NCBI GenBank assembly: GCA_977018835.1
Contig: OZ361256.1
Span: 5,890,001 to 5,954,000 of the forward strand
DNA length: 64,000 nt
Source: Minutocellus sp. GHC0000111
Taxonomy: Eukaryota
Direction of reading: 5' to 3'
Shown: piece after piece, positions 5,935 to 63,400 of the stretch
Numbering within the stretch: position 1 is the stretch's first letter
Layout: each line of letters starts with the position of its first letter
Notes under the pieces: model-generated
What the model was told of the DNA's origin: nothing
Database searches by the model: none
The model's input: only the letters and a program-made list of their open reading frames with translations
Program-made: the position numbers and the translations under genes

Positions 5935-6038
5935 TCATTACCTCAACACATGTAGATAACAAGAATGTGCGTAGCACGTGAGTAACAGCACACAATAAAT
6001 CCATTTTTATTTACAGTGATAAAATATTTTACACGTGT

Positions 6039-8352: not shown

Positions 8353-9781
8353 GGTTGTTTTTTTGTTTTGTGTCGGTTCTGGCGCAAGATGCGCTTTTCG
8401 ATGAGAACCTTACAAAAAGAACCCCAAATGAGGGAGACGTGCAAAAATACCCCAAACAAATATCCCCTTACCTCCCAACAGCAAAACTTCAAGATATCTT
8501 AACCAGCACCACCAATGCTGGTTGTGCGTCGGCCGAGACTAATTTCGGTCGATCCGACGATGATGTGTGCGTCGACCATTACATTTCTGAGGGAGAGTTG
8601 ATTCATCGAAGTTCCTCTGAACCAAGTGTTCCTGGAGGGATTTACGACTTAATGCTGAAAGGAACGTCGATGACTCTTCGCCACTGTGGAGAGCGGCGGC
8701 CTTCGATGAGGAGCCCATTGTCACGTTGGAGTGCTAACTTTGGCGATGGTGCGAAGAAAAAACGGCACAAAACACGCATTTTGGGGGCTTCCTAAAAGTT
8801 ATGGACAGCGCCCTCTTAAGAAACCTGTCATCATGACAGATTTCTTTATGATGAAATAGAGAAAGAAAGCCGCAGCGCGCAAATCGGCCGCTCCGTCGAC
8901 TTTTGATTCATTCGCATGTGATTTCGCCCCCCTCCTCCTCGCCGCCTCTCCTGTTGCCAGTGCTGGCACTACAGGTAGCAGTACAACTGGCCTTAGGCCG
9001 TGCATGACATGTGTGGCTTGGCTCAATGCCGTGCAGACAGACTGTGCACACACGTAGAAAAATTGCCTGCTGCTGCACAGGCCCGGTCGGTCGGTCGGTC
9101 GGTGACTTGCCGTCGTCGTGCCTCCAGAGGGGGGGTCTCGGGACCCCAAAGCCGAAGAAAAATAAGAATAATATTCTTATCTCAGGGCTCAGATTTCAGT
9201 AGAAATAAGAATATTGAGGGCTTAGCAATTACCCCAATATTCTTATTGCTGGGGTCGGACTGCATGACGACGACTGACTCTGACTTGATTGATTGGCCAA
9301 AACTCTCCACCAGAAATGGAACATTCCGTTCTGCACATATTTTTTCGTCAAGTCTCGAATGTCCCTTGCTGATACTCCGGTCGACGAGCATGTGCTGCCT
9401 GTACGGTGAGCGGAAATGCTTTGCATGGAGAGGTCATCCATCCCAGCAAGAGATTGATTGGAGCAACCAATCAACCAGAGGCAGTTCTCCTTTAGTTTTT
9501 CCCCTTTGCGTTATCAAAAAAGTTCGTCAAAGTCTTTGTGTCCCCGCAAGCTGCAAGCAGCACAAGATGACTTTTCTGTGTCGGGCCATACGAAGTGTAC
9601 TTTCCCATGAACGACCAGCGGCATAGCACGGCCATGAGAAGCAAAGAGGCAGCCCAGCAGTGCCATTCTTCTTGCCCAAAAGGTCAATAGATGCAATTCG
9701 TAGTGGTACTGGTACTGAACTGCGCAGCCAGCTAGAGAGGACGAAGAGAGAGGGAGAGAGAAACATACACACACAAAAATA

Positions 9782-11682
9782 ATGAGGCCATTGCATGATG
9801 CACACGCATCATCCGCGCGAGCCGATCGAGACGACGCTTTTGACGTCGAGGCAATGCTTTCGGTGGCGTCGGCAAGAGTCAGGCCGACGTCCGCTGCAGT
9901 AGCGGCAGCGGTAGGAAAGAAACGCCGGCGCGGTCCTCCTCGGGCCGATGCCGGCGGCAGCTTGTTCATCCCGCCGTTTTCGTCGTCGTCGTCGTCGTCC
10001 CATCGGCGCTCCAAGGCAAGCAGATCATCGTCATCATTATCTGCTACTGCTGCTAATGCGGCTGCTACCAGAAAATCTTCCCAATCCAACCGCATCCTTT
10101 CCCTAACCCTCGTCGCCATCGGCTTCTTCGCCGTCCTTTCGGCCACCGACCATCGGGGGCTGCTGTCCCTCGACTCAGACTACTTGGCCTTCGGCACCAC
10201 GCCGACCGGCTACGTCCGCCGTCGTCTGGCCGAGGCGGCCGGGATCGTCGAACAACAAAAGCAGCACGCCTGCGCCGCCTTTTCCGTGTGCGGCGATCCG
10301 TGCGACGCGACCCGATCGCAAACCTGTACGGAGGCCATCGGCCAATGTTCGGCGACGATCGATCGGATCGACGGACCCCTCGGATCGACCCTGGCCGTCC
10401 TAAGTTCCAACCCGACGTACCGTCTCAAGGACATACTGTTTGTCATTGGCAACCGATACCGGTTGGATTCCATGACCATATTGGGCGAACCGCGCTACCG
10501 CGGCACGCTGTTGCGGGAAACCCTGGTCAGGACCTCCACCTACGACAAGTGGGGGAACGGCACCATGGTGTCCCTCCACAGCAGTCTGTCGCCCGATGAG
10601 GTGGAGGCCATGGTCCAAACCCGTTCGGACGTCGAGGGACAACCACCCGGGACGGCCTACATGGACGGCCGCGAGGGTGGCAACGGCATCTACCTCGCCG
10701 ATCGGGACGATACCATCCCCACCTTTGCCGGCCTGCTCAAACGGATGTACGAGGAGGGTCGATGCGAGGGTGTGGTCGGTCCCGACTACGGTGGTGGTGC
10801 CGACCAGCAGGTTCGGGGGGACCAGCCCCTCATCGTGTCGTATCGCATGGGCGACGAGACGTGGCCCAAGTCCGTCGCGGACGATTATGCCGCCAAGCTT
10901 GTGGCGGAGCTGTCATCCGTGTCGTCGGCTTCTCCGACGGACGAGGAGGGGGGCAACAGGGCGATGGTGAGGCCGAGACCGAGGCCAAGGCCGAGACTGA
11001 GACCGTACAGGAGAACACTAACGACGAGGAGGAGGAAGCCAGGGAGGCGGCGAATGAAGATGAAGGAGAAGGCGATACCGGCATCGAAATCCAAGAGCAG
11101 AGGAGGAGGCTGCAGTCTGTCAGCAGTAGCAGCAGCAGCAAGAGGGTGCAGATCCGAGGGGCTCTCCACTATGGCAACGACTGTCACTCGGGCCACTACT
11201 TCCGAACTCAGAATAGTGAGGTGGTGAACGTCCGAACGTTGAGTTACTTTGTCGAACAGCTCGAAAGGGGTGGCGTCGAGGTCGAGTGAGTAGCTGGGCT
11301 GCGTACTATTTTTTTGTTTGGGTGTCGATCAACTATCGTCGTTTATTTCTTGCATGCCGTATAATTCCTCATTCACTCACCTTTCAGCCTTCTCTTTTCA
11401 ATTGAATCATTTTTTCCCTCTTTTCTTGGCCCTCTCAGGATATTATCCAACGCAAGCGTCGACCAAGACATGTGCGCCTTTGTCTTTGGCCGGACGCCAC
11501 AGCAAAAGCCAGACTCCAACCGAGGATTCCAAGAGCTCGTCGGCAAGATCAACGACGAGTACGATGGCAAAGGATTCAAGAGTCCTCCGCCTACGGAGGA
11601 GGAGGAGCAGCAGCAGCAGCAGCAGCAAGAGGAAGAGAAGGAAGAACCCGAGACTGAACAAAGTACCGACCGGGAAGCCTGA
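9782..11682 (+). CDS. Type II membrane protein, possible GT11/GT23-like glycosyltransferase; frameshift in the G-run at ~10950; intron at ~11286-11438
   Basis: TM helix and RRRL motifs; VSYRMGD resembles HxRxGD. Adding one G restores the frame into ...GALHYGNDCHSGHYF.... A GTGAGT...CTCAG intron leads to ILSNASVDQDMCAFVFG. Confidence 0.5.
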
Positions 11683-11866
11683 AGTCGCGGCAGAATAATG
11701 AATTTAATACTATAATATATTTACATGTAAAAACAATGCAAGTATTGGTATGGTGTGGTGTTTCTAGATCTGCCTAACACGGTACCACTAGATCTACCAC
11801 CACTAGAACATTGTACGCTCAGTCCAAGATCTGCTTTTTTTGGTAACTGTTCTACTGTGCTATCTG

Positions 11867-13060
11867 CTACCGCTTTTTCCACCAGATGTTGTTTGTAATT
11901 TTGATCAGAAAGTTGGAATCTCCTAGGTCTGTCGAGTTTGTTCTTCCTACAGTCTCACTCAGGTCTCGATTGACCATCGCCAATGTGCGTTTGTCGTTGT
12001 GATACGGATCGCCATTGACACTGAGCAGAGCATGGATCTTGTACCCATTCCGATAAATGAGAGTCAAAAGTGAAACGATGGGCAAAGGTTCGGTGATGGA
12101 GTTCTCCATTATGATATTTTCAACTTTTCCAGATGAGAGAATACGCTTGGCACCAAGGAAGGAAAAGTATTCAAATCCCTCGACATCAACCTTCATTAGA
12201 CGAATTGGAGGCGCAGTGTCTTCCAGCCACCCTTCTTGAATGGCAACATCATCCAATCTGACCACTTTTGCGGGTATCGCTTTGCGGAATTTCTTGGCAA
12301 GTCGCTCGACAAAGAAGGAACTCCCACCTGGATTCTTGCCCGTGGTCAGATTCATCGCCTTCTCTTCGGAACCAACTCCATAGGGAAATATCCGCACACT
12401 GCCATCTTGGTCCCAGCCATTCAACTGCAATGATTCGCACACCCGCACGGACATGATTGGGTTGGGATCAAAGGACGACACTTGATGTCCCAGCGCTCTG
12501 GAGAAGAGAGTGAACCAGCCCACGTTCATGCCCACATCGATTACACGTCCTGACACGGCAGTAACATGAGTTCCGTTGCCGTTACCGCTGCTGCCAACAC
12601 CATCGCCATCGCCAGACAATACATCCTTGAATATCTTCGTCAGTCCCTTCTCGTAGTACTCCCCCTTGTTGTGGATGCTGACCCATCGCATCTGATCGAA
12701 CCACTCGATGAATAGTGATATCCAGAATGGCGGCTCCGTGATGGTCAGTCGCTTGGGGGATTCGGCCAGAGCCTTGTTGGGATCGTAAAAGTCTTCGTCT
12801 TGCCTGCGTGCCATGATCTTTGGGCAGGAGACGGCGCTGTACGTGTGACTGTGTTGCGGTGTGTTGTCATCGTCCTTGTTTTTGTACGTTTGCTTTGGCG
12901 GCGGTTGGTAGAACATTCCATCACCCAACAATGCCCCCAAAGCGCTGCTACTGCTGCTGCCGCCGCTAGTTTGTGTGTGTATTCTCGACAGGGGCAGCAT
13001 ACCAACCAAGAGGATAATGACGGCTCGAACCAGCAAGGTGGTGGGAGTGCGAGATGGCAT
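11867..13060 (-). CDS. FkbM-family (Methyltransf_21) SAM-dependent methyltransferase, type II membrane
   Basis: VIDVGMNVGWFT, SFDPNP, VRLDD and LMKVDVEGFE motifs; N-terminal TM; single 397-aa ORF. Confidence 0.9.
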   Translation of the reverse strand: MPSRTPTTLLVRAVIILLVGMLPLSRIHTQTSGGSSSSSALGALLGDGMFYQPPPKQTYKNKDDDNTPQHSHTYSAVSCPKIMARRQDEDFYDPNKALAESPKRLTITEPPFWISLFIEWFDQMRWVSIHNKGEYYEKGLTKIFKDVLSGDGDGVGSSGNGNGTHVTAVSGRVIDVGMNVGWFTLFSRALGHQVSSFDPNPIMSVRVCESLQLNGWDQDGSVRIFPYGVGSEEKAMNLTTGKNPGGSSFFVERLAKKFRKAIPAKVVRLDDVAIQEGWLEDTAPPIRLMKVDVEGFEYFSFLGAKRILSSGKVENIIMENSITEPLPIVSLLTLIYRNGYKIHALLSVNGDPYHNDKRTLAMVNRDLSETVGRTNSTDLGDSNFLIKITNNIWWKKR

Positions 13061-13266
13061 GCCGAAAGTGGAGTAGAGGTGCCGACTACTATATATATTG
13101 CTGCGTACCGTACGTAGCTGCTAGCTATGCAGCATTCATTCGTCCTAACTCTTCTTTCTGGGTACGTGCGTGCGTGCGTGTAATAGAGCGGGTACATGTA
13201 GTCGGACTAGTACATGTACAGCTGTAGCAGGAATTCGTACATACGTAGCTAGAGGACCATAATGGC

Positions 13267-16200
13267 ATGTTAATCATCCTGCGGAGCCCCAGCCCAGGCA
13301 GGCGCCCCAGCCCCCATCATGCTCACCAGCGCGGAGGCAGCAGCCCTCGCAATCCTCGAGGCGGCGAGCAGGACTTTGACGCCGACCCCACCGAGCTGTT
13401 AGCCGCCATCCACTCTCGGAACTGGAAGAAGGCGGGCAGCTCCCTCCGGGGCGATCCCGACCAGGCCTCCATCTGGATCTACCGTCTGGACGATGAAAAT
13501 AATAAGTCCAAGAAGAACAATGGCGATGATGACAATGACGACGACGACGACGACGACAACGACGACGACAATGCCGCCGTCGAACCGCAACGGCCCGTCA
13601 AGTGGCGGACCCTCCCCCTCCACGCGGCCGTGCTGTTCCGCGCCCCACCCAAGCTCCTCCGCTCCCTCCTCAAGGCCAACCCGCTGGCGGCCTGCCACAG
13701 AGACGATCGCCATATGCTGCCCCTCCACCTGGCCATCAAGACGGGGACCGGCAAGGCCACCGTCCGGACGCTGCTGGAGGCGTATCCTCAGGCATTGGAC
13801 GAACGCGACGACCAGGGACTGCTGCCGCTGGATTTGGCCAAGACGTCGACCAGCCCGTACCGGCGGGCGTATTTGAATGCCTGGGCCGAGTACTACTACA
13901 AGCTCCATCGAGAGTGCGACTTTGATACCAACCCCACGGAACTTTACAGTTATCTCATGAACAAGGAGTGGGAGAAGAAGAAGAGTAGCAGCAGCATTGG
14001 TGGCAATGACAAGAATGACAAGGACGGTGCCAAGGCCAAGGGCAAAGGAGGGAGATACCTGTCCAAGGTCCTCACCCAGGCCGATGCCGCCACGTGGGTG
14101 AGCCGGAGGGAACCCCGTACCGACGACAACGGATCCGGCGAGCTGCGGTGGAGGATGCTCCCCCTCCACGCGGCCATTCTGTTCCAGGCACCGGACAGCA
14201 TCATAACGGCCATCCTCAACGCCCACCCGGAAGCGGCGCAGGGTGCCGACGATTCCGGCATGCTGCCCGTCCACGTCGCGCTGGCCAAGCGCTGTTCCGA
14301 GACGGTGCTGAACGCCCTGCTGCGGGCCTACCCTCAGTCCATGACCGTCCGGGATGGGAGGGGCAACCTCCCCATCGACGTGGCGCGCAGGTCCAAGTCG
14401 GTCCACCGCGAAGCGTACGTCGAGGCCCTCGAGAGGAATGTGGCCTTCTACATGCTGGAGGAGGAGTGCGACTTTGACGCCAACCCGTCGAGCTTGTACC
14501 TGTCCATCGAGGATGGCAACTGGGACGTGGCCGAGCATTTGGCACGGAACTGTCCCGAGGAGGTACGGACCTGGGTGGCCAAGCGAGAAGAAATCAAGAG
14601 CAAGAAGAAGAAGAAGAAGAAGCAGAAAGGGACGGGCGAGAACAAGGACGACGACGACGACGACGACAACGAATCTACGTCTCCCAAGGACACCAAGGTC
14701 AAGTGGCGGATGCTGCCGTTGCATGCCGCCATCCTCTTCACGGCTCCCACCGAGACCATCCGGGCCCTCGTCCAGTCCTATCCCGACGGATGTTCCTGCA
14801 AAACCACCCCGGAGAAGATGCTGCCAACTGCCGGTCGAGGTCGTCGAGCTAATGCTCATGTACTATCCCGACTGCCTCATCGATGCCGACGTCAAGGGAC
14901 GGACGGTCTTCACCCTGGCCGAGACTAGCAAGAATCCCAGCCTTCGTGCAGGTTATATGGGAGCGCTCGACCGTGGTCCCATGTACTGGAAGCGCCTGCG
15001 CGAGGCACAGGAACAGGGTGGGCACGAGAGCGTCGGCGATGAGGATTACGACGCCGGCATCGGGGGTATTGGCACCAACCTGACGTCCACCGCTTTGGCC
15101 AGTCATGACGAATATGGAGAGGCGGACCTTGCCACTCCAATCGAAATGAAGGCACGAGCTCAGTCAAACGTCCGAGCGGCTCGAGCTATGGACGAGAATG
15201 GCATCCTTCTACCACCGACGCTCACTCCTGCCGCCGCGACCGGGGCCAGTGCGGCTGCTGCACTGGCAGCTGCCAATTACATCCATCAGCAGCAGATGAA
15301 AGGCTCTCATGTGCAACCACAACAGCAGCCAGAGTACTACACCACCAGTCCTACGCAAGGCAGCCACGGTGGCGATTGTTCTGATGAGGCCAACTTCCCG
15401 GGAAAGAAGGAGCAGGGCGCGATATCGCAGTATCTTTCTCGCAGTCTCAGCAATATCAGCCCTTCGAAGAAGAGGAAGGATTCCAAGTTCATCGGCAAGG
15501 AGCTGGTCGGCGTCCCCCAGGGATCGTTCGATGTTAGCAAGATCAAGACACGAGCTGCGTCGCCCCCACCTCAGGCTCGGAATGGTGGTTTTTCATCGGG
15601 TGGCGCCGCAAAGAACCGGTCTTCATCAGCCAAGAGGCTGAGACAGAAGGTTAGCAAGCTACTTCGCAGTGCCAGCCGTTCAAAATCTCGTCAACGAAGT
15701 GAGGTAGAGAGAGATACTTCCATTCATGCCGCACCTACTTACTCGGAACAACGGGCCATGGCCCCTTCAAACCAGTTTGCTGCACCAGCGAATGCATATG
15801 CACAGCAGCAGCATCAAGCACGACCAGGAGGCAACGGTATGCCGCTCATGGCGGGAACAGTTGCAGCGGGAGTGGCTACAACAGCGGCCATGGTGCAACA
15901 GAACATGCAGAATCCTCATCTCGCAACGCAACAGCAGGTCCAAGCCGCCGGGGCCGTTGCTGGAGGTGGTCGAAATGGCGTCGTTGCTCCCGAATCAATC
16001 AACGTCGGCCAGCCCGACGAGATTCAGAATGTAGTTAGCGATCTGACAGACCCCTACAAGCCGAGGGTTGCTCCAGAGTCAATTCTCAAGCCTCAGAAGC
16101 GTGGTCTGGGATACAGTCCCTCTTCCGATGCCAACGAAGCCGCCGCCGAAGGGCCCGCCGAAGCTCCTGTCTACAACGGAACCCCTGCAGCTGAGGCCAC

Positions 16201-17036
16201 CGAGGACAGATCCTTTGTATCCCCAGGTGCTATGCTGGCGAAACAAGAGCAAAAAGAGATGGCTGCACCCGCAACGCACAGACTTGTGATGAAGTCTGGA
16301 CTCAAGGGTTCAAAGAGCACTGCAGGTGGAATGGTGAGGCAGAGATCGTCGACTCCGTCGAGGTCGAATGGACGTAAAGATCAAGCAGCAATCGAGAGAG
16401 AAGCAGCACAGTACGCTGCAACCGCTCGCAATCGAAGTGCAGCTTCTGGAACCAGCGCCGGTGTCCTTCGTAGCGGCCTCAAGGATAAGAAAAAAGCAAA
16501 CAAGAAGAATAAGAACTCATCACAAGAAGAGACGCCTAAGCCTCGCGGAAATGGTAAATATTCGAGCAGAATGGCAGCTGCAAATCAGAAGGGAGCCCGC
16601 CCGAACACCGTTTCAACTCTCACTGGCAATCCCTCTATGGTCAGTAGAGATACCCTCCAGGATGTCCAGCAAACAATGAATCTTCTCAATCCCAATGCCG
16701 GAGCGAATAATGGCATGGCGACGAATGCAGACCTGCTGTCTCTGATTGGTCCGACAGAATATCCTTCTGCGTACCAGAATGAGCCTATTCGGGATTTATC
16801 AAGAGCTCAGTCCATGGATTCGCTCAACGAGGACAGCCCGTGATGTCAATAGACTGGAGCAAGCAGTTGATGATGTCGTTGATGCCATGGGAGAAGCCAT
16901 ATTCGATAGCAAACTTATGAACGGAATTGCATCCATGCTCGGAGGAAAAGACAAGTCACAAAAGAAAGCTGACGATGATACTGCGACTTATGCCAGTTCC
17001 TTCCATTTGAATGAGATTGGCCCGCAAAAGAGGTAA
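13267..17036 (+). CDS. Ankyrin-like repeat protein with a long low-complexity tail; two frame disruptions (~14828 and ~16838)
   Basis: Three modules of (EC)DFDxNPT.LY...W...WRMLPLHAA...MLPxH.A...D..G.LP. The third module lacks the LH-A segment at ctgcca|actgcc. Removing one C at ~16838 extends the frame to the stop at 17036. Confidence 0.7.
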
Positions 17037-17614: not shown

Positions 17615-20137
<2,523 letters not shown>

Positions 20138-20600
20138 GGTTTGCTATTGTTGTGTATTTGACTCAAAGAGCACCGAGTACCAAAAAAGTGATGGGCTGGG
20201 CGAAGTTCCAGTCGAAGGCAGTGCCAGAGCGCCGCCGGCACAATGGAAGAAAAAACGAGCGGTGCCGAGGCCGCCGACCAATGCCGTCCGTGGGCTTCAG
20301 TACAAAAGCTACCAACACTCCCGACGGATAGAATTTGGGGGCTTCAATTTACCTAATTTTCATTAGGTATCCGCATTTCCTCGAAATTGAACAAGAATCA
20401 GAAACAAGTATCGCAGAATAGAAATAGTATTCCACAAATAGTCTTCTTCCTTATTTTCGATTTTCGCCAAAATCTGACGTGGTGGACAAAGTGCCCCACC
20501 AAAAATCGGCAGGGCCGCCCTCGACCGCACAAAGCTCTCCCCTCTCGCAGGAGTCACTTTTCATCGTGCCGTTGTTCGAATCGAAGCATCCCATCGAATC

Positions 20601-22075
<1,475 letters not shown>

Positions 22076-33258: not shown

Positions 33259-33366
33259 ATCTAGATCGATTGAGGTACGTGTTACGGTTACCGTACGATG
33301 CATCGATTGCACCGCAGAGGGGAAAAAGGCGACCCCAAGGTTTGGGGTATCGTTGCATATATATAT

Positions 33367-33897
33367 GTTAGGCCCAAAATGCGCACTGTCCCAGTTCGCG
33401 AACTGGGATCCCAGTTTGCGAACTAGGATTTATTTATCCCAGTTTGGAAACTGGGATCATAGGCACAATCTCAGTTTGCAAACTGGGATCAATCGAGAAA
33501 TAATGAATATTTAGCATGGATGATATCGCCTTTGCTTCTCCTCGCTTCATTTTTTAATTTGCAAATTCAAGATGTGATGCACAGTGCAACTTGTATTGTA
33601 GATAGATCTACCAGTACATGTACAAAATAGTCGTTGTGCATGAGCCAACACCGGCGCGGCAGTTACCATTCTGGCACTTGCCGAGAACACCAGTTTCCAA
33701 ACTGGAATTTATTATTGTTCCAGTTCGCGAACTCGTCTGGTTCCCATATTCGGATTAGCTAATTTATCTCAGTTTACATTCTGGTAGTATCAGTGCGCAA
33801 ACTGGGATCCTAGTTTGGGAACTGGGGCCCAGTGCGCAAACTGGGATAAATGAATCTCAGGTTCGCGAACTGGGACAGTGCGCATTTTGGGACTAAC
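33367..33897. mobile_element. MITE (~530 bp) inserted in a (TA)n tract
   Basis: 37-bp TIR GTTAG(G/T)CCCAAAATGCGCACTGTCCCAGTTCGCGAAC with 1 mismatch; TATATA on both sides; ~10 internal near-palindromic CCAGTTyGCrAACTGG motifs. Confidence 0.9.
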
Positions 33898-33973
33898 ATA
33901 TATACGAATCTATCGTACGACTTGCCGAGCGCTATTGGCTACTGGTGCTCCGTCTACATGTAGTCTAGTAATG

Positions 33974-42102: not shown

Positions 42103-42510
42103 TTACAATGAGACAATTGTCAAGATCCGGAAGTGCGAGGAGCTTCTCGGCCGAAGCAAGTGCTCAAAAGCTCGGCGTGGAATCACCTCCAATGGCCTTG
42201 GGGATGCCAAAGATCCTCGCATCCATATCATTCCACAAACCAGCCCATCGTCGGGACGGGTCCATTGAACGTCCGAGAACAGGAGGCACTGTCCCGATTC
42301 AGACCACACGGGCGATTCCAGCCAGTGGAAGTCGTATTGAGAACAATCTGCTACGACCTCAGCGGGTCCAGAAAAAAATTCAGCTGCTCGGCCTAATTCG
42401 TCGGCGTTTGGTGGTGGCAACGTCGAAGCAGCGTCGGCTGGCACAATGCATAGTGCAATAAGATTACAGACGAGAATGATTAGCGTACTTGACCCCATTG
42501 TTGCCGCCAC
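42103..42510 (-). pseudogene. Truncated SMP-30/gluconolactonase-like gene fragment
   Basis: Signal peptide followed by FHWLESPVWSESGQCLLFSDV (W.EGPVW...LLFSD first-blade motif); the rest of the beta-propeller is missing. Confidence 0.5.
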
Positions 42511-42678
42511 TACGTATCAAGTACCAGATCGACCCTTTGCCTCGTATCTTTTGACGAACTGACTGGGCGAGTCAGAAGCCGGGGAATTTTTTGTCCGCGA
42601 CTGTGGTATTTGCAAGCACCGCAAGCGAGCATGACCGAGCGATGCGGGGACGCGACCGCCACCATAGGCCTACCACCT

Positions 42679-42864
42679 CACAGCAATATCTGCCAGCCGG
42701 ATGACTCGCATACTCTTGGTCGCATTTTCGGTGGCCGGCCGGCGCGCGAAGCAACCGACCGGCGCGCCCAACACAGCACCATCTGCCAGCAGGATGACTC
42801 GCATACTTTTGGTCGCACTTTCGGTGGCCGGCCGGCGCGCGAAGCAACCGACCGGCGCGCCCAA
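42679..42864 (+). repeat. Two tandem copies of a 93-bp unit starting CACAGCA (terminal unit of the foldback element)
   Basis: Copies start at 42679 and 42772 and differ at a few positions. Confidence 0.9.
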
Positions 42865-45800
42865 CGCGAGCCACCATGGCGGCAAAAATTCAAATTGCCG
42901 CCGCTACGTGCAGAACGAAGGCGATATCTCGCGCTGGTGTGGGAGAATTACGGCACGAGACCAACCAGGTACTCCCGACATCCTGGTGATATTCCCGTTG
43001 GTCTCGATCCACAATTCTCCATGAGCAAAAAAAATAACGGCCGCAATCCCGCGGTCAACACCGCAGACAGAATTGCGGTGCAGGACGCCCTGGCTGAACT
43101 GCTCGTCCGTCTTCGCAGAAAGGAACTTCATTACTACAATTTCATCGGCAACAACAACGACTCCTTGATGAATGTGTTGGGATGCAGTCCCATCATGTAC
43201 GGCGCCGTCATGCACACTGCGGGCATCTTGCGTTTGAAGAAGAAGAAAAAACACGAAGACTGCGATGTGTTTTTTTGTGAGGACAGACAACCAGAATGGA
43301 TGGGATGAAATGGCATCAAGACACTGCCTTGCCGACGACGTTCAGCGAACCCCATACAAAAAGAGCATGTTTGTTCGCCTCGGTTCTATCAATCCTCGCG
43401 CAGCCGACGCTCTCCATGATGATGGATGGATGGCTTTCGACATGGTCACGGTCGAGCAACAACTTCGCCTCGAAATGCCGCCGCCGCGGCTCAATTTGAC
43501 GAAGGCATGTAATGCATTCCTCAAGTCGGTCGCACCACATGTGTCGGTGGGACATGCGGCGATGGACTACGAAATCAACAACAGGCAGATGTTGCTCGAG
43601 GCCCAGAAGTTCCCTGGTGGGCACAATGGCCAGGACGATGGGTGGGACAATGACGACGATGTTGGGACGGTGGGCACCCTGACCACGACGGAGGCCGGCG
43701 AGATCAGTGAGGACGATGACGACGAAGACGAGGACTATGTGCCCTGTTATGAGGAGGACGAAGCTGATGTTGCAAGAGAGGACGCTACACATGAAGCACA
43801 CATGCAGCAGTGGCTTTGAGAAGAGTCGTCAGAAGCACGGTGATGGCGAGCCAGAGATGGGAGCTGTCGATGATGCCGAGGATGACGATGCCCCTCACTT
43901 CCATTTCCTGAAAAAGGCCGGCATTGAGGCGGCCGACTCAGGTAAAATAAGGGCAGTGCTGGCAGAATGCTGGAGAGCTTTGTCTATTAACATTTCTGAT
44001 GGCAACAACAAGAAGAAACCAAGGACAACAGAGTTCATCCACCATAACACCTCCACCAAATGAACTCTCCTAGAGCACAATCGCGAGGAAGATGGCATGA
44101 CGGATGACGACATCAAAGAGCTCTGCAAAGCTTGCTCTAATTTGCTCTCCACACTCTTGACGCAATATATTCCAGGTTTCTGAAATGGTGCATGAAATGG
44201 GATGATGAGGCAAAGAAGGCTGTGAGAGAGCTTGAAGCATTGATTGCAAGTGCCCTCAAGCAAGCACGGGCAATCGGCGCAAAATTATTGCAATAATTTT
44301 GCGCCCGAGAGGAGGCAGATGGCATTGGGATAAGTTTATGCAACAATCAACCCGACAAAGGGACTTTTTGGTCTGGGAGACAAATGGGTGAGTTAAGAAG
44401 GACGTGATGTGTTTGTTTGGGTGTGCTATTTACTTTTTTGCTCAATCGCGATGCTGTTTGTAAAAGTTGGATTGTGCAATTCATTTGTTATTGTGTAGTA
44501 GTAGTGTAATTTCATTTTCTAATTTTATACATGCCCTGCTCCCATCTCTACATCCTCATCTCCATCGGTGGCCATCATGATCATTTGTTGGCGCTTGTCA
44601 TCAGTTTCTGCTTTAACAGCTTCGGTCCTTTTCCTTGTTCTTGCCACCCGAGAGTTTCGCTCCCGCCTCTCCTCGACCTTTGGATTGGATGCCCTCTCCT
44701 CAGCCTTGAACTGCGCCGTCTGTTGGGCCTCATGTCCCTTGACGCCCTGAGTCCGACGATCTTCCTTAACGCCCTCTTGGTGGGCTCGCTCTACAAACGA
44801 TTCGTCGAGCCAGCCAATAGATGCCGCCCCATCCATTCTTCACTAGCCAAATGTGTTGGTCCAAGATGTGATCTTCGAGTAAGTGCCACTTGGGCGTTGT
44901 GCTAATGCCGATTGCCCGTGCTTGCTTGAGGGCACTTGCAATCAATATGCTTCAAGCTCTCTCACAGCCTTCTTTGCCTCATCATCCCATTTCATGTGCC
45001 ATTTCAGAAACCTGGAATATATTGCGTCAAGAGTGTGGAGCAAATTAGAGCAAGCTTTGCAGAGCTCTTTGATGTCGTCATCCGTCATGCCATCTTCCTC
45101 GCGATTGTGCTCTAGGAGAGTTCATTTGGTGGAGGTGTTATGGTGGATGAACTCTGTTGTCCTTGGTTTCTTCTTGTTGTTGCCATCAGAAATGTTAATA
45201 GACAAAGCTCTCCAGCATTCTGCCAGCACTGCCCTTATTTTACCTGAGTCGGCCGCCTCAATGCCGGCCTTTTTCAGGAAATGGAAGTGAGGGGCATCGT
45301 CATCCTCGGCATCATCGACAGCTCCCATCTCTGGCTCGCCATCACCGTGCTTCTGACGACTCTTCTCAAAGCACTGCTGCATGTGTGCTTCATGTGTAGC
45401 GTCCTCTCTTGCAACATCAGCTTCGTCCTCCTCATAACAGGGCACATAGTCCTCGTCTTCGTCGTCATCGTCCTCACTGATCTCGCCGGCCTCCGTCGTG
45501 GTCAGGGTGCCCACCGTCCCAACATCGTCGTCATTGTCCCACCCATCGTCCTGGCCATTGTGCCCACCAGGGAACTTCTGGGCCTCGAGCAACATCTGCC
45601 TGTTGTTGATTTCGTAGTCCATCGCCGCATGTCCCACCGACACATGTGGTGCGACCGACTTGAGGAATGCATTACATGCCTTCGTCAAATTGAGCCGCGG
45701 CGGCGGCATTTCGAGGCGAAGTTGTTGCTCGACCGTGACCATGTCGAAAGCCATCCATCCATCATCATGGAGAGCGTCGGCTGCGCGAGGATTGATAGAA

Positions 45801-46416
45801 CCGAGGCGAACAAACATGCTCTTTTTGTATGGGGTTCGCTGAACGTCGTCGGCAAGGCAGTGTCTTGATGCCATTTCATCCCATCCATTCTGGTTGTCTG
45901 TCCTCACAAAAAAAAACACATCGCAGTCTTCGTGTTTTTTCTTCTTCTTCAAACGCAAGATGCCCGCAGTGTGCATGACGGCGCCGTACATGATGGGACT
46001 GCATCCCAACACATTCATCAAGGAGTCGTTGTTGTTGCCGATGAAATTGTAGTAATGAAGTTCCTTTCTGCGAAGACGGACGAGCAGTTCAGCCAGGGCG
46101 TCCTGCACCGCAATTCTGTCTGCGGTGTTGACCGCGGGATTGCGGCCGTTATTTTTTTTGCTCATGGAGAATTGTGGATCGAGACCAACGGGAATATCAC
46201 CAGGATGTCGGGAGTACCTGGTTGGTCTCGTGCCGTAATTCTCCCACACCAGCGCGAGATATCGCCTTCGTTCTGCACGTAGCGGCGGCAATTTGAATTT
46301 TTGCCGCCATGGTGGCTCGCGTTGGGCGCGCCGGTCGGTTGCTTCGCGCGCCGGCCGGCCACCGAAAGTGCGACCAAAAGTATGCGAGTCATCCTGCTGG
46401 CAGATGGTGCTGTGTT
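42770..46416. repeat. Long inverted repeat: arms 42770-44278 and 44907-46416 (~1.5 kb each), 628-bp spacer
   Basis: The arms are reverse complements with only a few indels and substitutions, and the same peptides appear on opposite strands in the ORF track. Confidence 0.97.
44525..46291 (-). pseudogene. Internally deleted, frameshifted RAG1/Transib/Chapaev-like transposase (partial mirror copy at ~42895-44278 on +)
   Basis: Reconstructed C-terminus ...ARAIGISTTPKWHLLEDHILDQ...GG(I)GWLDESFVERAHQEG matches the TPK.H.L..H...G...E...E..H motif. Termini are CACAGCA...TGCTGTG. The catalytic Asp core is not visible. Confidence 0.65.
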
Positions 46417-46614
46417 TGGGCCTTTACTTGCCGATTTGCCTTGATATTTCGGTGGATTCCCGGATCTTTGGATGGCTCTGCCCCTCTAATCTCAAAAAAC
46501 GATGGCGTCAGCGTTTTGCCTCCTGCACATGCATGATTTATGGACGAAATGAAAGTCAGGAAGTCAAGAGCGCACGCTACTTTGATATTGTTTCGCCTTT
46601 ATTTCCTTTATATT

Positions 46615-49600
46615 ATGATCATCAGCATCCCGCGCCCTTTGGGCGGTGGCTGCAGTGCAGCCGCCATCCTCGTGGCTTTGGTGATCGCCAGCGAAAGTGG
46701 CGGCTGCTCAGGCCCTCATTCTCTTCGTCGTCTGCCAACAGCAATAATTATGGCTCATGCGGGTCCTTCTTTGGCATAGTTGGCGTTGATGCCTTCACTC
46801 TCCCCACTTCACGAACCACTGCAACTCCTCTCTACTCCTCGTATTTGGATTCCATAACTGCCTCGGTAGTTCCCAGCAAGAAAAAATCGTACTCGCCATC
46901 CTCATCTTCAGGAGGCAAAAGTAACGCCGCCGCTGTAGCAGGTGACACGCCTCCGCCCAACTTTCGATCCTTTTCGTCTTCGGAACGGAACGAGCGCAAG
47001 CTAAGGGGCACGCTGGGTTCACTTCCCATCCGAGAGGATCATTTGCAGTCGTTGATTAGTGATGAGTGAGTAGTCGCAAGATAGATGTGCTTGTTTTGGT
47101 TGTCGGAAAAAAAATATTTATGCTCGAAGTTTTGTGTTCTCGTTGCTTATACTGAACGTCTTTGCGTTTCTACATTCGTAAATTCCCAGTATTGACTACG
47201 ACACTCCTGAGCTTGGCGACTTAAGCTCCAGTGGGGGCGGCGACGTTGAAGCGACGCTCGGCCGGCTGGTCGGCTCGGCACTCTCCTCAATCAACACGTA
47301 CCTGCCAGATGATGTATATTACGATGGTCGTTCTGACGACGGCGCGCTCTTGAGGGAGTGGATAAGCGATCCAACGAATGTCCGTGCTCTCGCTCGCCGT
47401 GCTCATTTCGACATTGCTCCTGGAAATTTTGGTGGCAACGGACTGCCTGACGACGATCGTCGTGGATTTGGAGACATTGCGGCCGAGGAACGCCAGATTG
47501 GAAAGTGGACATCTTGGATCACCGACCCTGCCGTGGCTTCAGCAATGGTCAACATGGCGCTGGATGATACTTTCACATATTATCCAGATGATTTCGTCGT
47601 CGGCGACATCCGTGACGAATACCAGGTTCTGACTTCTCTCGAAGACTATTTGACAGATCCAACTTCGGCCAGGGCTCTGGTTGCATCAGCTCTCGATGGC
47701 ATTCCCAGTGCACTTCCGGACGACTCGCCCTTTTCCCAGGAAAATGATGCCGCCACAGTACTTCGCAAGTGGCTAGATGCCGACCCCGATAATGCAAGGC
47801 GAGCTCTTGTCGGATTTGCTGCGAGTATGGATGATAAATTGGGCCTTCTCAGTGATGATATGGCTGCACATGCAGCCCTACCAGGATATGAATCTGTCGA
47901 TGAAGTCTTGAGACGATACAGAAATGATCCCACTACATTCCGAGGCCCCAACAGCAAGGCATCCAGGGCCTTTGCTGGAGATGGAGTCTCGACCGTTCTG
48001 AGTGACGATGCAGCCATCGGTGAGGAGCTCATGCAAAGCTTGAGCGCCTTTTTGGTGGATCCCACAAACGTCCAGAGACACGCTGGGTTTGGAGGCGGGC
48101 CCTCACTTAATCCGGACGATTCGAGTTATTTACCTGGATACGAAAACCTTTCTGATCTTCTTTCTAGATATGGTAACGATCCCACAACCATTGCAAAGGC
48201 GGCAAATTTCGGCGGGGCAGCAAGTGCAGCTCCGGATGATGGAAGTATCGGAGAAGCGCTCAAAGACATAGTTTCAGTTTGGTTGTCAGATCCTACAAAT
48301 GCCAATGCAGCCCTCCAAGAAATGGGCGTCGATGGAAGTGGATTGCTTCCAGATGATATTGAGTATTCGGCTGATGAAGCTGGTCTGTTGTGGCTTGAGA
48401 AGTACCTGACGGATGCCGATGGTCGGCTCAATCTCAGCCAGTGGCTGTCCACGGAGGGGAACTTGGAACGCATCCTTTCGGACACCCGATTCACCTTCCT
48501 TGCCGACGACGATGCACGAGACCTTGGCCATATGCCGGCTCAATCGCGTTGGGGGGGTAACGATCCAACAAACCCATCAGCGAAAAGGGATGCTTATGCC
48601 TCTGGTGTTGAAACGCCCAAGGGATTTTCGCTGTATTATGGCTCTGGCGCAAACATGAAGCGCGTATCCTCCGCCGGAAACGACAAGCTCGTCACCATGT
48701 TTCCAGATGACAAATTCTACTTGCCTGGATATGAATCGCCGAAAGATACCCTTGGACGATATGCTCTCGATCCCACGACGTTCCGGGCCAAGTCTAATGC
48801 AAATGGTTTGGAAACTCCCAAAAATTCGCTCTATTACGGAAGAAATTCCGCTGGAAATGCTTCGGCTGCTTTTTCTACAACTGGACTGGCCTCATCGCTT
48901 GCCAAGCAAGCCGATGGTAATCCAGGAGCGACATTCATGGCCGACGACGACGGGAGGGGCCTCAATTACATTCCCGCGCCTGGTCCTCAAGGAGAAGGGG
49001 CGTCTTCGCCAGTTAGTGCTGCCTCTACCGTCGCTGACGGAGGAATTGTTAACGACGCAATTGTTGGTGAGAAGCTCATGCAAAGCTTGAGCTCGTATTT
49101 GGCAGATCCGACAAACGTCCAGAGACTGGCTGGGTTCGGAGGTGGACCGACCATTAATGCCGATGATTCGAATTATCTACCAGGATATGAGAATATATCT
49201 GATCTTCTTTCTAGATATGGCAACGATCCCACAACCATTCGCAAAGCTGCTGCATTTGGTGGGGCAGCATGTGCTTTGCCGGATGATGGCAATATTGGAG
49301 AAGCGCTCAAAGATATTGTTGGCGCATGGCTAAGTGACCCCACGAACGCAGCTGCAGCGCTCCAAGATATGGGTGTACATGGAAATGGATTGCTTCCAGA
49401 TGATATTGAGAACTCTGCTGATGAAGCTGGTCTGTTGTGGATCGACAAGTTCCTGACGGATGCCGATGGTCGGCTCAATCTCAGCCAGTGGCTGTCCACG
49501 GAGGCGAATTTGGAAAGAATCCTTGCTGATGACAAATGGACCTTGGTACCTGACGACGATGCACGAGACCTTGGCCATATGTCGGCCCAATCGCGTTGGG

Positions 49601-57452: not shown

Positions 57453-60400
57453 ATGCAGGGCGGCGGCGGTTATTACGGCGCTGGACCTGGTGGACAAGGC
57501 GGTGGTTATCCTTTTCCGTCAACTCCCTCGGCTGCTGCTGGCAGTGGAGCCGCTCCTCCGAGGGCTCCCTCTCCCTTCAATAATGCCCCGCCCGCTGCTG
57601 GCGCTGCTGCTGCCGCTGGCGGTCCTCCTCCTCCTCCGATGATGACGGGCGGCGGTTATTACGGCGGTGCTGGTCAGCAGCAGCCAATGCAGCCACAAAT
57701 GCAAGTGCAGCCTCCGACGCCCTCGGCTCATGGCCATGCTGCTGCTCAATACGCTGAATATGGCGGCCATCATGGACATGGCCATGGACAGAGGCCGCCT
57801 TCTCCTGCCGGCGGCATGACGATGTATGGACAGCAAATGCAACAGCAACAGCAAATGCCTCCTCCTGCGACACCTGCGGCACACGCGGCATTTGGTCAGC
57901 AGCCTCCGACGCCAGTCAACAATACTTACAACAACAGCAATACTTCTGCTGCTGGCGGTGCAGCCATTGCTGCTGGCGGTGGAGGTCCTCCTCCCAGAGC
58001 CCCGTCTCCGTTCCGTCCTCAGCCGACTGCGACAGTAGGACAACAACCACCAATGGAACGACGGCTATCAACAGCCTCTTCGGCGGGAAGTGCCGCCGAA
58101 TTGTTTGCCTCGGCCGGGCCTGCCAATGTGCCCTCTCATCAGCAGGGACCAACCACGCAAACGCAAACACAAGCCCAAATCCACCACGTACCGTCCCACG
58201 CCTCGTACGCCTCCTCCCAAGGATCCTTTGACCAACACGATCACCACGACAGCGCCATGGGACCGGGTCTCACCGCCGCCGCCTCTCTGTTCTCGTCGGG
58301 CATCACCTCCGCCGCCAGTGGGGCCGCCACGTTGTTTGGTTCCGCCCAAAAGAAGGTGGCGACGGTTACGGCGACGACTTCGGCAGGAAATATCAATATC
58401 AATGCCAGTAGAGTGGGCAATGTCGTGCAAAGTGTCAAGAGTGCCGGTGCCGCCATAACAAGCAATGTCACCGAAAAGGGCGTCAGTGGATCCATATTGG
58501 GAATGGTCGAAAAGGCCGGGATGGCACCACCGCCAGTTCCAGTGCCGGTTGCGCAAGGTGGAGGAGCTGCTACAGTGGACGCTGCTACTATGCCAGCGGC
58601 AGCAGCGGGGCAGCAGGGCGAGCTTCTGGTGGAGGATCTTGGCGATTCGTACGACGATGACGAGGATGCCAACGGTGATGATGGAAATGCAAATGGTGCA
58701 AATTGTGCACTGCAAGAAGGGTGGGAGGAGATTATCGATAAAACCAGCGGACAGCCCTACTATTACAACTCGACGACGGGCGAGACAAGTTGGGACAGGC
58801 CGGTGGTGGTGACTACGACGACGATGGTGGTGGAAGATACTCCTGTTGAAGCGGCTCCTGTTGATGTGGCTCCTGTGGCAGTTGCTGCTGCGGAGCCCGA
58901 GCAAGCACCTGCGCCACTAGAGGAGGTTGCTCCGGTTGCTGCTCCGGTTGCTGAAATTGCTCCTCAGCCTGAACCAGAACCAATCGCAGAGCCTGCTGCT
59001 GCCCCTTCTGTTGCCGATGCCCCGATTGGCGAAGAGCGTCTGCAGGACGGGTGGGAGGAGATTATGGACGAAGCCAACGGTATGCCGTACTACTACAACT
59101 CTGCCACCGGGGAGACCACGTGGGACCGACCGGTGGCGCCTCCTACTGCTACCGCTGCACCTTTTACTGCTGCCGCGGAAGAGCCAGCACATGTAGTGGA
59201 ACAGACGGCGGAACCGGAACCGGTGCCCGAGCCTGTACCGGCAGAAGCTATTGCTGGTGGTCCACCAATGGCCGCCCCTGGCATTGTCGCTGCCCCGCCG
59301 TCGACGGCACCTACCGAGCTGGAATTTCCTCCTCAACCGGCATCGTCGTCGGAAGTCGTGGCGGGAGGGGTAGCATCATCTTCTCAGGAGGCACCGACCG
59401 TCACGCTGCTGCCTGCCGAGACCGAGTCGGAGATTGGTGGTGGTGAGGCTGTGCCTGAACCCGAACCGGTGGAAACTGCGGTGGAGGATGACGCACCAGC
59501 GTCTGTGGCCGCGCTTGCCCCAGGATGGGAAGAGCTTTACGATGAGGGCAGCGGGCAGCCGTACTACTACAATTCGACAACTGGAGAGACCAGTTGGGAG
59601 AAGCCCGTTGTTGACGAAGCCGCTGCTGTCGGTGATGTGGCTCCTCCTCCTATCGCGACTGAAGAGGAGGATATACCGACTCATGACACGGCAGCTCCGT
59701 CCACCGTCGAAGAATCTGCGCCTCCTGCACTTGATGTTCCGGCGTCGGTAGAAGAGATTGCCGATGTCCAAGCCCCAATCGAAGCGGAACCAGAGGTGGC
59801 TGTGGCGGAAGAGATGCCAGAACCTACTCCGGTGGCTGAACCGGTGACGGAACCCGCTGCGTTGGATCTACCGGAGGGGTGGCAGGCGTTCACTGATCCT
59901 GGTGGCCAAACGTATTATTACAATCAGAGCACCGGTGAGACGAGCTGGGACAAGCCTGCAATAGCCGAGGCGGTTCCAGAACAAGCTGCAGTTGACATCG
60001 CTGCTGAAGCGCCGCCGCTGGAAGCCTCTGTGGAACCGGCACTTGATGAACCTGCACCTACGACGCAAGCTGAGCCTGAACCAGCACAAGTACCCGAGCC
60101 GGAGCCCGTTGAACCAACAATGGTGCCATCGACCCCGGCTCCCGCTCAGCAACAGTTACCACCAGCAGCTGCAGCCTTTTCGGCTCCACCAAAGCAGAGC
60201 GTGGAGGTCGCATCCACTCCGTCTCAGGAGGGTCAACCTGGTCCGGCAGAGCATTCCCGCCAGGTTCAGAGTGCCGCCCGGCCTCCAATCTCTTCCACAA
60301 CGGCCCGGGCGCGACTCAATCTGCCTTTGCCATCGAAGAGGACCCTCAATGTCCCGAGCCGCACTCCCCGGCAGCCTGGTCAAGGCGTAGCTCCATCGAC

Positions 60401-63400
60401 AGGAGCAAGCTCTACTAGAAGAAGATTCCGTCTACCACCCCCGTCGATCAAATCGACACCGACTCCATCTCAGGAGGAAAACATCACCGTCGTCCCTACG
60501 CCGAAGGAGGCGGTTGAGCCTCTGCCTACAAAGACGCCGCACAACACACCAGCCTTTGACGTCGATTACATCGAAGATACCGGAGAAGGTCCATCCTTGG
60601 AGCTTCCGGGATCATCGGCGTCGGCACCTGATGCTTCGGGCACCGAGGCACCTGCTGCAGCACCCACGGCACCCATCCCAACTCCGGCCTTGCCGCCTCG
60701 TGGGCCAATCGTGCCATCGATGACGCCTGCGGCCGGAGCTCAACCAGAGTCGACGGTCGAGGCCGCCGCAGCGGCATTGTCGCAGCCTTTCAAGATCGAG
60801 AAGAAGCTGAGCTTTTCGTCGGCAACGGCGCAGGAGGAGCATGCCGCCCAGGTCGGACTTGGCCCCGATGAGGTGGAAGAAGATGAGGAAGAGGAAGATG
60901 ATATTGTTGCTGTCGATAAATCTGCTCAACCACCACAGGAAGGCACCGAGGCATTTGTAGCTGGCGTTGTTGCAAGTGAAATTGTGGATGAAGCCATTGA
61001 CCGCGTGATTGATACCCCCGCGGCAGCTACAGGTGAGGCGGAAGATACTGTCGGTGGTGCGGGTGGTGGCGTGCCGGAAGCAACAGGTGCTGCGCCAACA
61101 CTCCCGGTTGGCTGGCAAGAGCTTACAGATCCCAGCAGTGGACAGCTTTACTTTTACAATTCAGAGACGGGCGCGACGAGTTGGGATCGGCCGCCAGCCG
61201 TTGCCGACGCTCCTGCAGTTGAGGAGGATGAGGCCACTACTCCTGCGGTTGAGGAGAGTGGCGATGCTACCGATGCTGTCCAACAACAAGAACCACCACC
61301 GCAGACCGAGGCTTCGGAAGAGACTGTTGGGAGTGGAAGTAGCTGGGAGGTCGTCGACGGCGGCGCCGACCCCAAGGAAGCCGAAATTAAGCCGTCGGAA
61401 GATGATGGAGTACCTCTCGAGAACAACAGTGACGATGGTTGGGCAGCTGCCAACCCAGAAGCAGAGGGCGCCACTGAAAACGCCGGCGAAGGCGCTGCTT
61501 CCTCCGGACCCACGGAGCAAAGCGAGCTTCCAAGCGGATGGATTCAAGTTATTGATGAAACATCTGGCGATCCTTACGTAAGTTCATCTCTTGCGATTTG
61601 CTATCTCTCTAAATATCTTCTTTGGCTTTCCATCTTTCCAGCTCAATCCCTAATCCTTTCTTTCTTACCTGTTCACCGTGACACAGTATTTCAATGAGGA
61701 CACAGGAGAGTCGTCATGGGAAAAGCCGTCCATCGATACCGATGACTCCCCTGCGGAGCCCGGGTCCGATGAGCCTGTCCCCGAGGCTGCTGCTGTGGCA
61801 CCGGCGACCACCGAAGAAACAGCTCCGACTGCTGACGAGGCTGAGGTCATCGTCGGCGATGATTCTGAACTTCCCGAGGGGTGGTCGGAACAAACAACGG
61901 AAGATGGTGAACGGTACTACTTTAACGAACATACTGGAGAGTCTTCGTGGCAGAGGCCACCATCGAACCCGAAAGATAATGTTGCGGCAGTCGATGCCAG
62001 CATCTCTGTATCCGAAACGGAATATGAATTAGCTCCGACAAGTGATGAGGGATGGCAGACAGTCAAAGAAGCCCCCGTGCTAGAGAGTGCTCCAGATGAT
62101 GCCGAGACAGAAAGCCTCCGAGCGCTCTTGACTAAGCAAGACATTGGCTCGTCGCCACCGCCTTCCGTTTCTGAGCTGGATGGGATGATGCCGGTGTCAA
62201 TGAGTCAAAATGCAGACACTGAAACAAACGAAGAAGAAAATGACGAGTCTCGGCCTGAGCCTGAGCCTGCTCAAGATACTGGGGAGCTCCCTCCGGGATG
62301 GCTCGAGTGCACGGACCCAGAAGGAAATACCTACTATTTTAATGACTTGACGGGCGCATCCAGTTGGGAGCGACCTCAAGGCGGCACCACTGGTGATGCG
62401 CCTGAACCCGCCGAAACGGAATCTGCCGTCGATGAGGCTGAAACAGAAAGTTTACGCGCCCTGTCGGCCAAGAGAGATGTTGGCTCTTCTCCTCCTCCGT
62501 CTGTATCTGAGCTCGACGGAATGGTTGAAGTTCCCCCCACCGAAGGAGAAGAGTTGGCAGTTGAGAACGAAACCTCAGCACCTGTCGATGCCGATGCCAT
62601 CAACCCCGAACCGGCTGAGGCTGAAGTGCCAGGCAAGGAGGAAGTAGCCCCACTGCCCGAGCCTTGGGTCGAGCTAATGACTGATGCGGGAGAACCATAT
62701 GTAAGTCAAGTGTTCCTGTGTGTCTTTGCGTCGTTTGGTCGAAGCTTTCTATTCAATGCTCCTCCCACTAACCTATTGCTTTCTTCGCATCTCCTTTCGC
62801 CAATCCGTAGTATTACAACCAAGAGGATGGTACAACATCGTGGGAGCGACCACAGGCTCCTCTCGAGAGCGCAGTTGGCGCTGGTGACGACATTGGCGGT
62901 GCTGCTCAGGAAACAACAGGGGCTACTGGCGACGACACTGCTGCCGAGCCGAACCCTACTAGTATGGATGTGTCCAGTGAGGCTGAGCAGCGTCCTCAGA
63001 CCCTCCCAGAGAATTGGACGGAGGAAACAACCGATGCTGGAGAGGTATATTATTACAACACTGAAACGGGCGCAACACAGTGGGATCGCCCCGTCTCAGA
63101 AGACGCTACAGTCGAAGATTCGCAAATTGGAGGCGCTCAGTCCACTGACGAATTTGTCCACGTTGAGAAGGAGCCCGAAATGAGCGAGGATGGTGCACCT
63201 TCAGCCGCCGCTAATACGGCCGGTGACTCTGATGAACTTCCCGCTCCATGGGAAATGCTCTACACTCCAGAGGGAGAAGCCTACTATTTTAATCAGGAGT
63301 CCGGTGAAACGAGTTGGGAGAAACCTTTGGCTCCGTCAGCTCCGTCGGGACCGGTCGATTATCGCACATCTGCTGCGTCCGCAGCAGCAGCGGCGGCGGC

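Follow-up and report, generated by a model that had tools for sequence, protein, structure and literature searches.

The 64,000-nucleotide stretch analysed in this work, referred to as the window (positions 5,890,001 to 5,954,000 of contig OZ361256.1, Minutocellus sp. GHC0000111, assembly GCA_977018835.1), carries at positions 42679 to 46416 a foldback locus built from copies of one DNA transposon family. It is composed of a 93-bp stub (copy A), a left arm (copy B) and, on the opposite strand, a longer element (copy C), part of which constitutes the right arm. We interpret the locus, with a probability of about 0.6, as a dead, nearly whole copy of a RAG1/Transib-type transposon adjoined by an inverted duplicate of its 5'-terminal 1.5 kb, which likely arose in one local rearrangement starting from a break at the 3' end, and which is probably an immobile scar and not a proven silencer. 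The locus resembles a foldback by-product of a DNA transposon, a common type of by-product, with the outline of Mu killer (Muk) of maize, and its junctions are sharp enough for the order of events to be deduced.

Structure of the foldback and kinship of its arms

Two inverted arms separated by a spacer of 628 bp had been proposed in an initial annotation of this DNA and are present, although their outer termini are located at 42772 and 46414, the 2 extra nucleotides annotated being flank. Each arm begins with CACAGCA, as annotated; three such termini are found in the window (42679, 42772 and 46414) versus 0.07 expected by chance, and in the contigs of public sequencing runs varied flanks adjoin the position of the 42772 terminus. 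The internally deleted 5' part of a transposase gene, attributed by the annotation to both arms, is found there with the same deletion and the same private stop codon. The C-terminal motifs TPKWHLLEDH and DESFVERAHQ, assigned to the spacer and to the strand of the right copy, do lie there on the minus strand, separated by frameshifts, one of them a 4-nt duplication near 44808. The right copy itself, described as one of two inverted 5' halves, is instead an almost entire element of 2124 bp, which belongs to a deleted subfamily with multiple copies.

A likely position for the 3' end of copy C was obtained from the public runs, which were searched as assembled, filtered contigs (X1, X2, X3, X18 and others; X1 and X3 are DNA, X6 and X8 RNA). 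In the contigs listed for X1 and X3, family-level depth continues through the spacer and stops at 44291-44297, which makes the annotated lack of a 3' terminal inverted repeat (TIR) mostly wrong. A loose end in X1 (two records) runs from 44291 into unrelated DNA, with CA preceding 44291, and one record of X18 leaves the element at this very base, there with GA instead of CA. The family protein P0041 independently places the 3' end near element position 2126. The family likely terminates in CACAATAATTTTGCG, of which the right copy would be short by about 2 nt; while the 5' end CACAGCA is seen directly, the 3' end CACAATA is deduced from the two X1 records. This putative 3' end of copy C is the centre of a palindrome at 44276-44305; no other palindrome in the 64 kb exceeds 20 bp. 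The first three nucleotides (GGC) of the long palindrome are the last three of the left arm.

The two arms differ by five events, which are a 2-nt indel at about 43269, 1 nt at about 43812, 2 nt at about 44145, TG/CA at 44189-90 and 2 nt at about 44238. In the terminal 93 bp they are identical to each other (0/93 differences), whereas copy A differs from both at 5/93. Both arms carry a private TGA stop where all eight aligned family proteins have Gly, and a private Arg at a position which is Gly in 6/6 aligned family proteins. They also have in common a 3-nt insertion at 45601 that is absent from 99% of the depth in X1 and from 100% in X3. As the shared stop and Arg are absent from all aligned family proteins, one arm was likely copied from the other. 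The internal deletion common to both arms was rejected as evidence of local duplication, since it is family-wide.

Origin of the foldback and competing explanations

We propose that the events began with a break in copy C, about 2 nt short of its 3' terminus, for which a misplaced cut by the transposase of the family is a plausible cause. The broken end would then have been sealed as a hairpin or fused with its sister, so that 15 nt were copied back on themselves. Through GGC/GCC, synthesis may next have jumped to the other strand, 628 nt upstream, and from there run along C as far as its 5' terminus; the same product would be obtained from a full tail-to-tail palindrome that later lost about 600 bp on one side. 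The new end would finally have joined the older copy A at its base 93 via AAC/GCCCAA microhomology, with deletion of the intervening DNA. The GCCCAA preceding B is nearly identical to the GCCCAAA read inward outside C.

Further observations speak for this sequence of events. The centre of the palindrome coincides with the stopping point of the family contigs, and the family rearranges often, with four of 33 close family proteins (P0026, P0041, P0090 and P0093; some possibly assembly chimeras) switching between sense and antisense element sequence and one tandem duplication. For this count 161 proteins were examined, of which 48 had a hit at >=55%, and 15 of these were set aside as more distant. 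Individual rearranged copies include P0041, in which a mini-element (the 3' end joined to a 5' end of about 250 bp) is nested in reverse inside another copy, P0124 with a different deletion, and P0016 with a tandem partial duplication.

Public DNA contigs span both outer junctions, the left one in two of four runs and the right one in three of four. The junction of the left flank with copy A is at about full flank depth (16 vs about 20 in X1, 192 vs 192 in X3). On the right, contigs of X1, X2 and X3 cross the junction with roughly a third to a half of the depth of the flank, and a second allele, divergent by about 8% (38 differences in 488 nt), occurs alongside. Full depth on the left and partial depth on the right fit an older, shared copy A and a foldback present on one haplotype. 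The junction between stub and left arm was not seen among the contig rows listed. To the right of the locus, 46440-47255 has two alleles that diverge by about 8%, between flanks that show one allele in the rows listed, and inside it X2 and X3 have a 73-bp deletion (46514-46586).

Unequal depth at the two outer junctions could also indicate an artefact of assembly or library, by which two real loci, the left flank with copy A and the right flank with copy C, were joined through the high-copy repeat or through one chimeric fold-back read. Mis-joins would be easy for an element at 100 to over 1000 times flank depth, and four of the five events that distinguish the arms are indels in homopolymers or dinucleotides, as errors in long reads usually are. 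Other copies of the family frequently carry such slippage indels as well, and the fifth difference, which exchanges two bases, agrees with variants that occur naturally in the family. Furthermore, the outer flanks are not mirror images, unlike those of a plain fold-back read, the breakpoints fall on the true termini of the element (with no offset at the 5' end and one of at most 2 nt at the 3' end), which is rare for a random chimera, and the X1 contigs listed match the left flank without a difference over about 1.7 kb. An artefact is in our view unlikely, but it keeps some weight because none of the runs inspected confirmed the centre junction.

The centre junction has zero depth at 44280-44289 in all four runs in which the region 44220-44350 was inspected (X1 and X3 DNA, X6 and X8 RNA). 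Filtered contigs drop rare connections between high-copy paths, and the palindrome measures 30 bp against a word size of 31 letters; this gap shows neither absence nor lack of transcription, yet it counsels caution, given that X1 matches the flanks almost exactly and that some low-depth joints survive in X1 and X3. Several points count against a single local rearrangement. Each arm has changes of its own, including a 2-nt insertion in C absent from B, which one round of copying explains only with subsequent mutation or with errors of sequencing. Three of the five arm differences fall within the distal 135 nt (p ~0.006), and the TG vs CA difference affects one TpA site, only about 1 of about 26 other TpA sites being different. 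This TG/CA difference suggests a patch copied from another family member, which fits better than independent mutation; a polishing error may also account for it. The position of the 3' terminus relies on the two X1 records, and of its two last bases one is different in X18. The microhomologies are exact over 3 nt only. Finally, RAG and Transib enzymes normally form hairpins on the flanking DNA and not on the transposon end, and thus the proposed hairpin sealing would be an aberrant reaction or the work of host repair.

The private variants of each arm would be accommodated by two separate and recent insertions of sister copies, B nested in A and C inserted close by in reverse orientation, with later deletion of DNA between the two. 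Multiple copies of the deleted form exist, the identical deletion junction being found five times in four further proteins (P0009, twice in P0016, P0017 and P0018), B begins exactly at a terminus, as expected of insertion by transposase, and a nested inverted insertion is known in the family from P0041. Such a history leaves the central palindrome unexplained, no target-site duplication (TSD) remains, and the arms share the private changes described above, absent from all aligned family proteins; we regard it as quite improbable.

The initial annotation had further suggested that the unit might be mobilised by its two equivalent ends. Both outer ends are intact CACAGCA termini and intact transposase open reading frames (ORFs) exist in the family, but no direct repeat of 2-9 bp was detected around 42679-46414 or 42772-46414, and mobilisation is not supported. 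The ends of the family are moreover asymmetric (CACAGCA... vs the putative CACAATA...), as described for the TIRs of subgroup I Transibs (PMC9435367), and two 5' ends are perhaps no substrate. That the locus is a mobile foldback element moved by the family transposase is in our opinion hardly credible, and we retain the single rearrangement from a broken 3' end as its most probable origin.

Table 1. Coordinates of the foldback locus and its nearest ORFs (positions in the window).
Feature	Position	Strand	Remarks
Nearest left ORF	42103..42516	-	points away from foldback; no Pfam hit
Copy A, 5' stub (93 bp) from a different family copy (CACAGCAATATC...)	42679..42771	+	5/93 different from arms
Left arm B, 5' terminus and 1507 bp of internally deleted element	42772..44278	+	ends GGC; no own 3' end
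Deletion junction and G>T stop in B	44054..44078	+
Perfect 30-bp zero-loop palindrome	44276..44305	.	centre 44290/44291; longest in window
Spacer between arms, 628 bp	44279..44906
Copy C, 2124-bp nearly complete non-autonomous element	44291..46414	-	5' CACAGCA at 46414; 3' end likely 2 nt short
3' trailer and subterminal region of copy C, 234 nt	44291..44524	-	AT-rich; likely 3' untranslated region (putative role)
Transposase C-terminus in spacer	44525..44906	-	stop at 44525-44527
DESFVERAHQ	44777..44806	-	frame differs from TPKWHLLEDH
TPKWHLLEDH	44868..44897	-	frame differs from DESFVERAHQ
Right arm, 1508 bp	44907..46414	-	portion of copy C mirrored by B
Matching deletion junction and stop in C	45107..45131	-
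Outer flank of C, inward reading GCCCAAA	46415..46421	.	mirror match, not TSD
Nearest long right ORF, 1011 aa	47182..50217	+	internal repeat; points away; no Pfam hit

The parent family and its transposase

The host is a diatom: the named relatives of a GAPDH encoded in the 64-kb window are diatoms, and a TPI-GAPDH fusion gene is present in the window. A match to the left part of the element reading frame with 97% identity is the 920-aa protein P0004, which belongs to a cluster of nine containing intact proteins of 1089 and 1097 aa (P0008 and P0011). Relatives of the family transposase at E<=0.001 number 623. The summed depth of element contigs is about 5,000-17,000 vs about 20 in the flanks in X1, and about 28,000-95,000 vs about 190 in X3, a rough sign of high copy and not a copy count. 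The deleted form represents a non-autonomous subfamily, because its deletion junction recurs in other family proteins. The window copies lack about 572 codons (P0011 residues ~329-900), and with them D516, D615 and the CxxC motif.

The assignment to the RAG1/Transib type, made in the initial annotation from the termini and a C-terminal motif, was borne out by predicted structure and by motif conservation. An AlphaFold model of P0011 (1,097 aa) was built on an alignment of 81 sequences and reached a predicted local distance difference test (pLDDT) score of 80.9. Foldseek retrieved with it 46 hits at E<=0.001, the listed ones being RAG1, BbRAGL or HzTransib, with RAG1 as the best (5.6e-12). Comparison with RAG1 (4wwx_E) gave a VIA Z of 20.8 (522 residues aligned, root-mean-square deviation 7.1), with BbRAGL 19.9 and with HzTransib 13.6, while the P element scored 10.6 and coiled coils below that. 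The intact transposase of the family is thus predicted to have a RAG1-core-like fold. Among ESM Atlas neighbours of the transposase are DUF1280 (12% of members), cnidarian clusters and RAG1.

In the non-gap rows of the same alignment the acidic residues D516 (61/66), D615 (76/76) and E1004 (68/69) are near-invariant, as are the C(2)C motif (C632 71/72, C635 73/73) and the H(4)H motif (H978 69/71, H983 72/72). The accessible text of PMC12730594 defines the CMCT group by D-D-E, C(2)C and H(4)H, and from the order of the motifs and this definition D516, D615 and E1004 would be the catalytic residues. The Transib/CMCT clade, with Transib, TransibSU/RAGL and Chapaev, has in common with the diatom family the RAG1-core fold, D-D-E with C(2)C and H(4)H, and CAC termini, as far as described in the accessible parts of PMC4411706 and PMC12730594; termini, motifs and fold together support placing the parent family in this group. 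Its asymmetric ends resemble those of subgroup I Transibs and AanRAGL (PMC9435367). It differs from the solved Transib/RAG members by an identity of about 11%, by the lack of a Pfam RAG1 hit and by an insert of about 120 residues, which the P0011 model shows as a helical hairpin (residues ~733-850). The deleted diatom copies come without a RAG2-like gene. A RAGL element has been reported in another stramenopile (PMC9435367).

A Pfam scan of four pieces of the window and three full proteins gave no significant family and no RAG1 hit; Gag_p24, the best score (E 0.002), was rejected as below its cut-off. The four ORFs scanned near the locus gave no hit in Pfam either. In the sequence search of the PDB P0011 had no match, and the alignment profile matched only coiled coils. 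There was no family match among viral contigs, and none of the 12 pattern matches in metagenome contigs was a relative. The 121 loci matching an 18-nt pattern of the 3' end were discarded as chance matches, since 0/121 extend into the element or encode a transposase. The parent family is apparently a recently active, high-copy RAG1-fold transposon of a diatom, with intact ORFs, that is undescribed in the literature searched; no publication on such a diatom family was found there, Repbase being outside this search. P0008 and P0011 together with the 623 relatives without Pfam annotation possibly constitute an undescribed Transib-related lineage.

Silencing, TpA mutation and further features of the window

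The initial annotation proposed the locus as a candidate silencer of the Mu killer type. The likeness is one of outline, with two 5' ends and an inverted partial transposase gene, and the role itself is hypothetical. According to the accessible part of PMC3440606, Muk too goes back to an element with an internal deletion and combines a duplicated 5' TIR with an inverted portion of the transposase gene; this portion measures about 1.3 kb in Muk and 1.5 kb in the diatom locus. For Muk, silencing of MuDR is shown genetically in the same text, whereas for the diatom foldback silencing is a conjecture. The diatom locus differs also in having one arm within a nearly complete element, a 3' trailer in the loop, flanking ORFs directed outward, and a high-copy family of RAG1/Transib type as its source. 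The Ac killers p1-ww-id1 and id4 are again inverted repeats of 5' element sequence, for which the available text of bioRxiv 10.1101/2020.01.07.897926 gives an origin by aberrant transposition and fusion of broken ends. In that system double-stranded RNA and small interfering RNAs were measured and duplications on the Mb scale accompany the insertions, while for the diatom locus double-stranded RNA is a prediction; unlike in the Ac killers, its centre is a perfect 30-bp palindrome at the 3' terminus.

A working silencer of this type would be compatible with the proposed origin. The left-arm promoter would give a 3.6-kb RNA with a stem of about 1.5 kb, which would be diced and silence the family in trans. 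As both arms encode the same sense, convergent transcripts would lack complementarity without read-through by one of them. For a 1.5-kb RNA hairpin, the left-arm promoter would have to be still active and its transcript to continue for 3.6 kb over the antisense 3' trailer. The outline of Muk argues for such a function (PMC3440606, accessible part), as does that of p1-ww-id4, which is apparently driven by the element's own promoter (bioRxiv 2020.01.07.897926, available text). In Phaeodactylum, inverted-repeat constructs silence genes and small RNAs of 25-30 nt map to methylated transposable elements, as stated in the accessible parts of PMC2724275 and PMC4247016. The arm ends show the expected folding, the family retains intact ORFs as targets (P0008, P0011), and its sequence occurs in 9/11 RNA runs listed, from three studies. 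These nine hold 39-60% of the words of 44200-46900, in contigs assignable neither to copy nor to strand nor separable from DNA carry-over.

On the other hand, copy C keeps its own 234-nt 3' trailer in the spacer, where transcription from this copy would probably stop, and to either side the closest long ORFs are directed outward, leaving no evident read-through from the host. At 44277-44278, where RNA contigs from X6 and X8 diverge from the left arm, their loose ends follow the ordinary continuation of the family. The family is high-copy with other sense/antisense chimeras, to which one more source may add little, and even Muk silences high-copy lines incompletely, its hairpin model being disputed (PMC3440606, accessible part). 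We consider a silencing function improbable. If the locus were a true silencer, it would be a natural segregating trigger with which to test how diatoms start transposon silencing.

A mutational signature is evident in the family proteins. In 19 columns they vary between Tyr, His and Cys and never show Arg, the outgroups having Tyr or Phe in 15/19. CpG decay was rejected as the cause of this variation on both grounds. With the codons of the right copy as reference, and restricted to non-synonymous sites in columns with at least three sequences, T>C at TpA is realised in some other copy at 20/35 sites vs 15/467 for other T>C (Fisher p 2e-17, a statistic which ignores shared descent and pools proteins of unknown samples, P0004-P0124). 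In the same test C>T at CpG gave 5/109 and transversions 5/2417. Some CpG change is present too, as seen in these 5/109 opportunities and in the H/R and R/C columns 270 and 906. The TpA observed/expected ratio is 0.27 and 0.30 in the two kilobases filled by the arms, the lowest of 64 windows. Judging from this variation, family copies appear to differ overwhelmingly by TpA-to-CpA/TpG changes, a signature like that of the process in Bigelowiella natans.

For B. natans, TpA-specific hypermutation of foreign DNA is reported in the available text of bioRxiv 10.64898/2026.01.13.699255. There, as in the diatom, T/A-to-C/G transitions at TpA leave sequence poor in TpA and rich in CpA/TpG; in that rhizarian the process was measured directly in mutation-accumulation lines and concerns viral inserts, while in the diatom it is deduced for a DNA transposon from amino-acid variation among copies. 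No report of TpA hypermutation in diatoms was found in the literature, and the word 'diatom' is absent from the main text of the preprint, whose supplements, outside the search, might cover other taxa. The TpA-directed signature supports a repeat-targeting process outside Bigelowiella. One could combine these strands and imagine that a RAG1-like transposase hairpin-sealed its own transposon end, and that hairpin RNA from the foldback guides silencing and the family-wide TpA-to-CpA/TpG erasure, the locus being a natural one-haplotype 'killer' allele that steers a DNA-editing defence; this we consider very improbable.

Other features of the window include the TPI-GAPDH fusion gene at 17615-19432 on the minus strand and a second GAPDH at about 20600-22075 on the plus strand, which are inverted and 96% identical over 647 bp. 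The pair suggests gene conversion, and the differences between the two are without TpA bias. At 33360-33904 there is a 545-bp element resembling a miniature inverted-repeat transposable element, which is bounded by terminal inverted repeats of 44 bp and contains repeats of 20 bp. A short repeat, rich in AT and itself harbouring inverted copies, is found twice, 4.7 kb apart (4332-4507 and 9159-9225). The 1011-aa ORF to the right of the foldback contains a tandem duplication of about 350 aa with recurring DPT/DD motifs. Finally, a long coding region carries at 58710-63326 a repeat array which, from its motif, we take to be WW-like.

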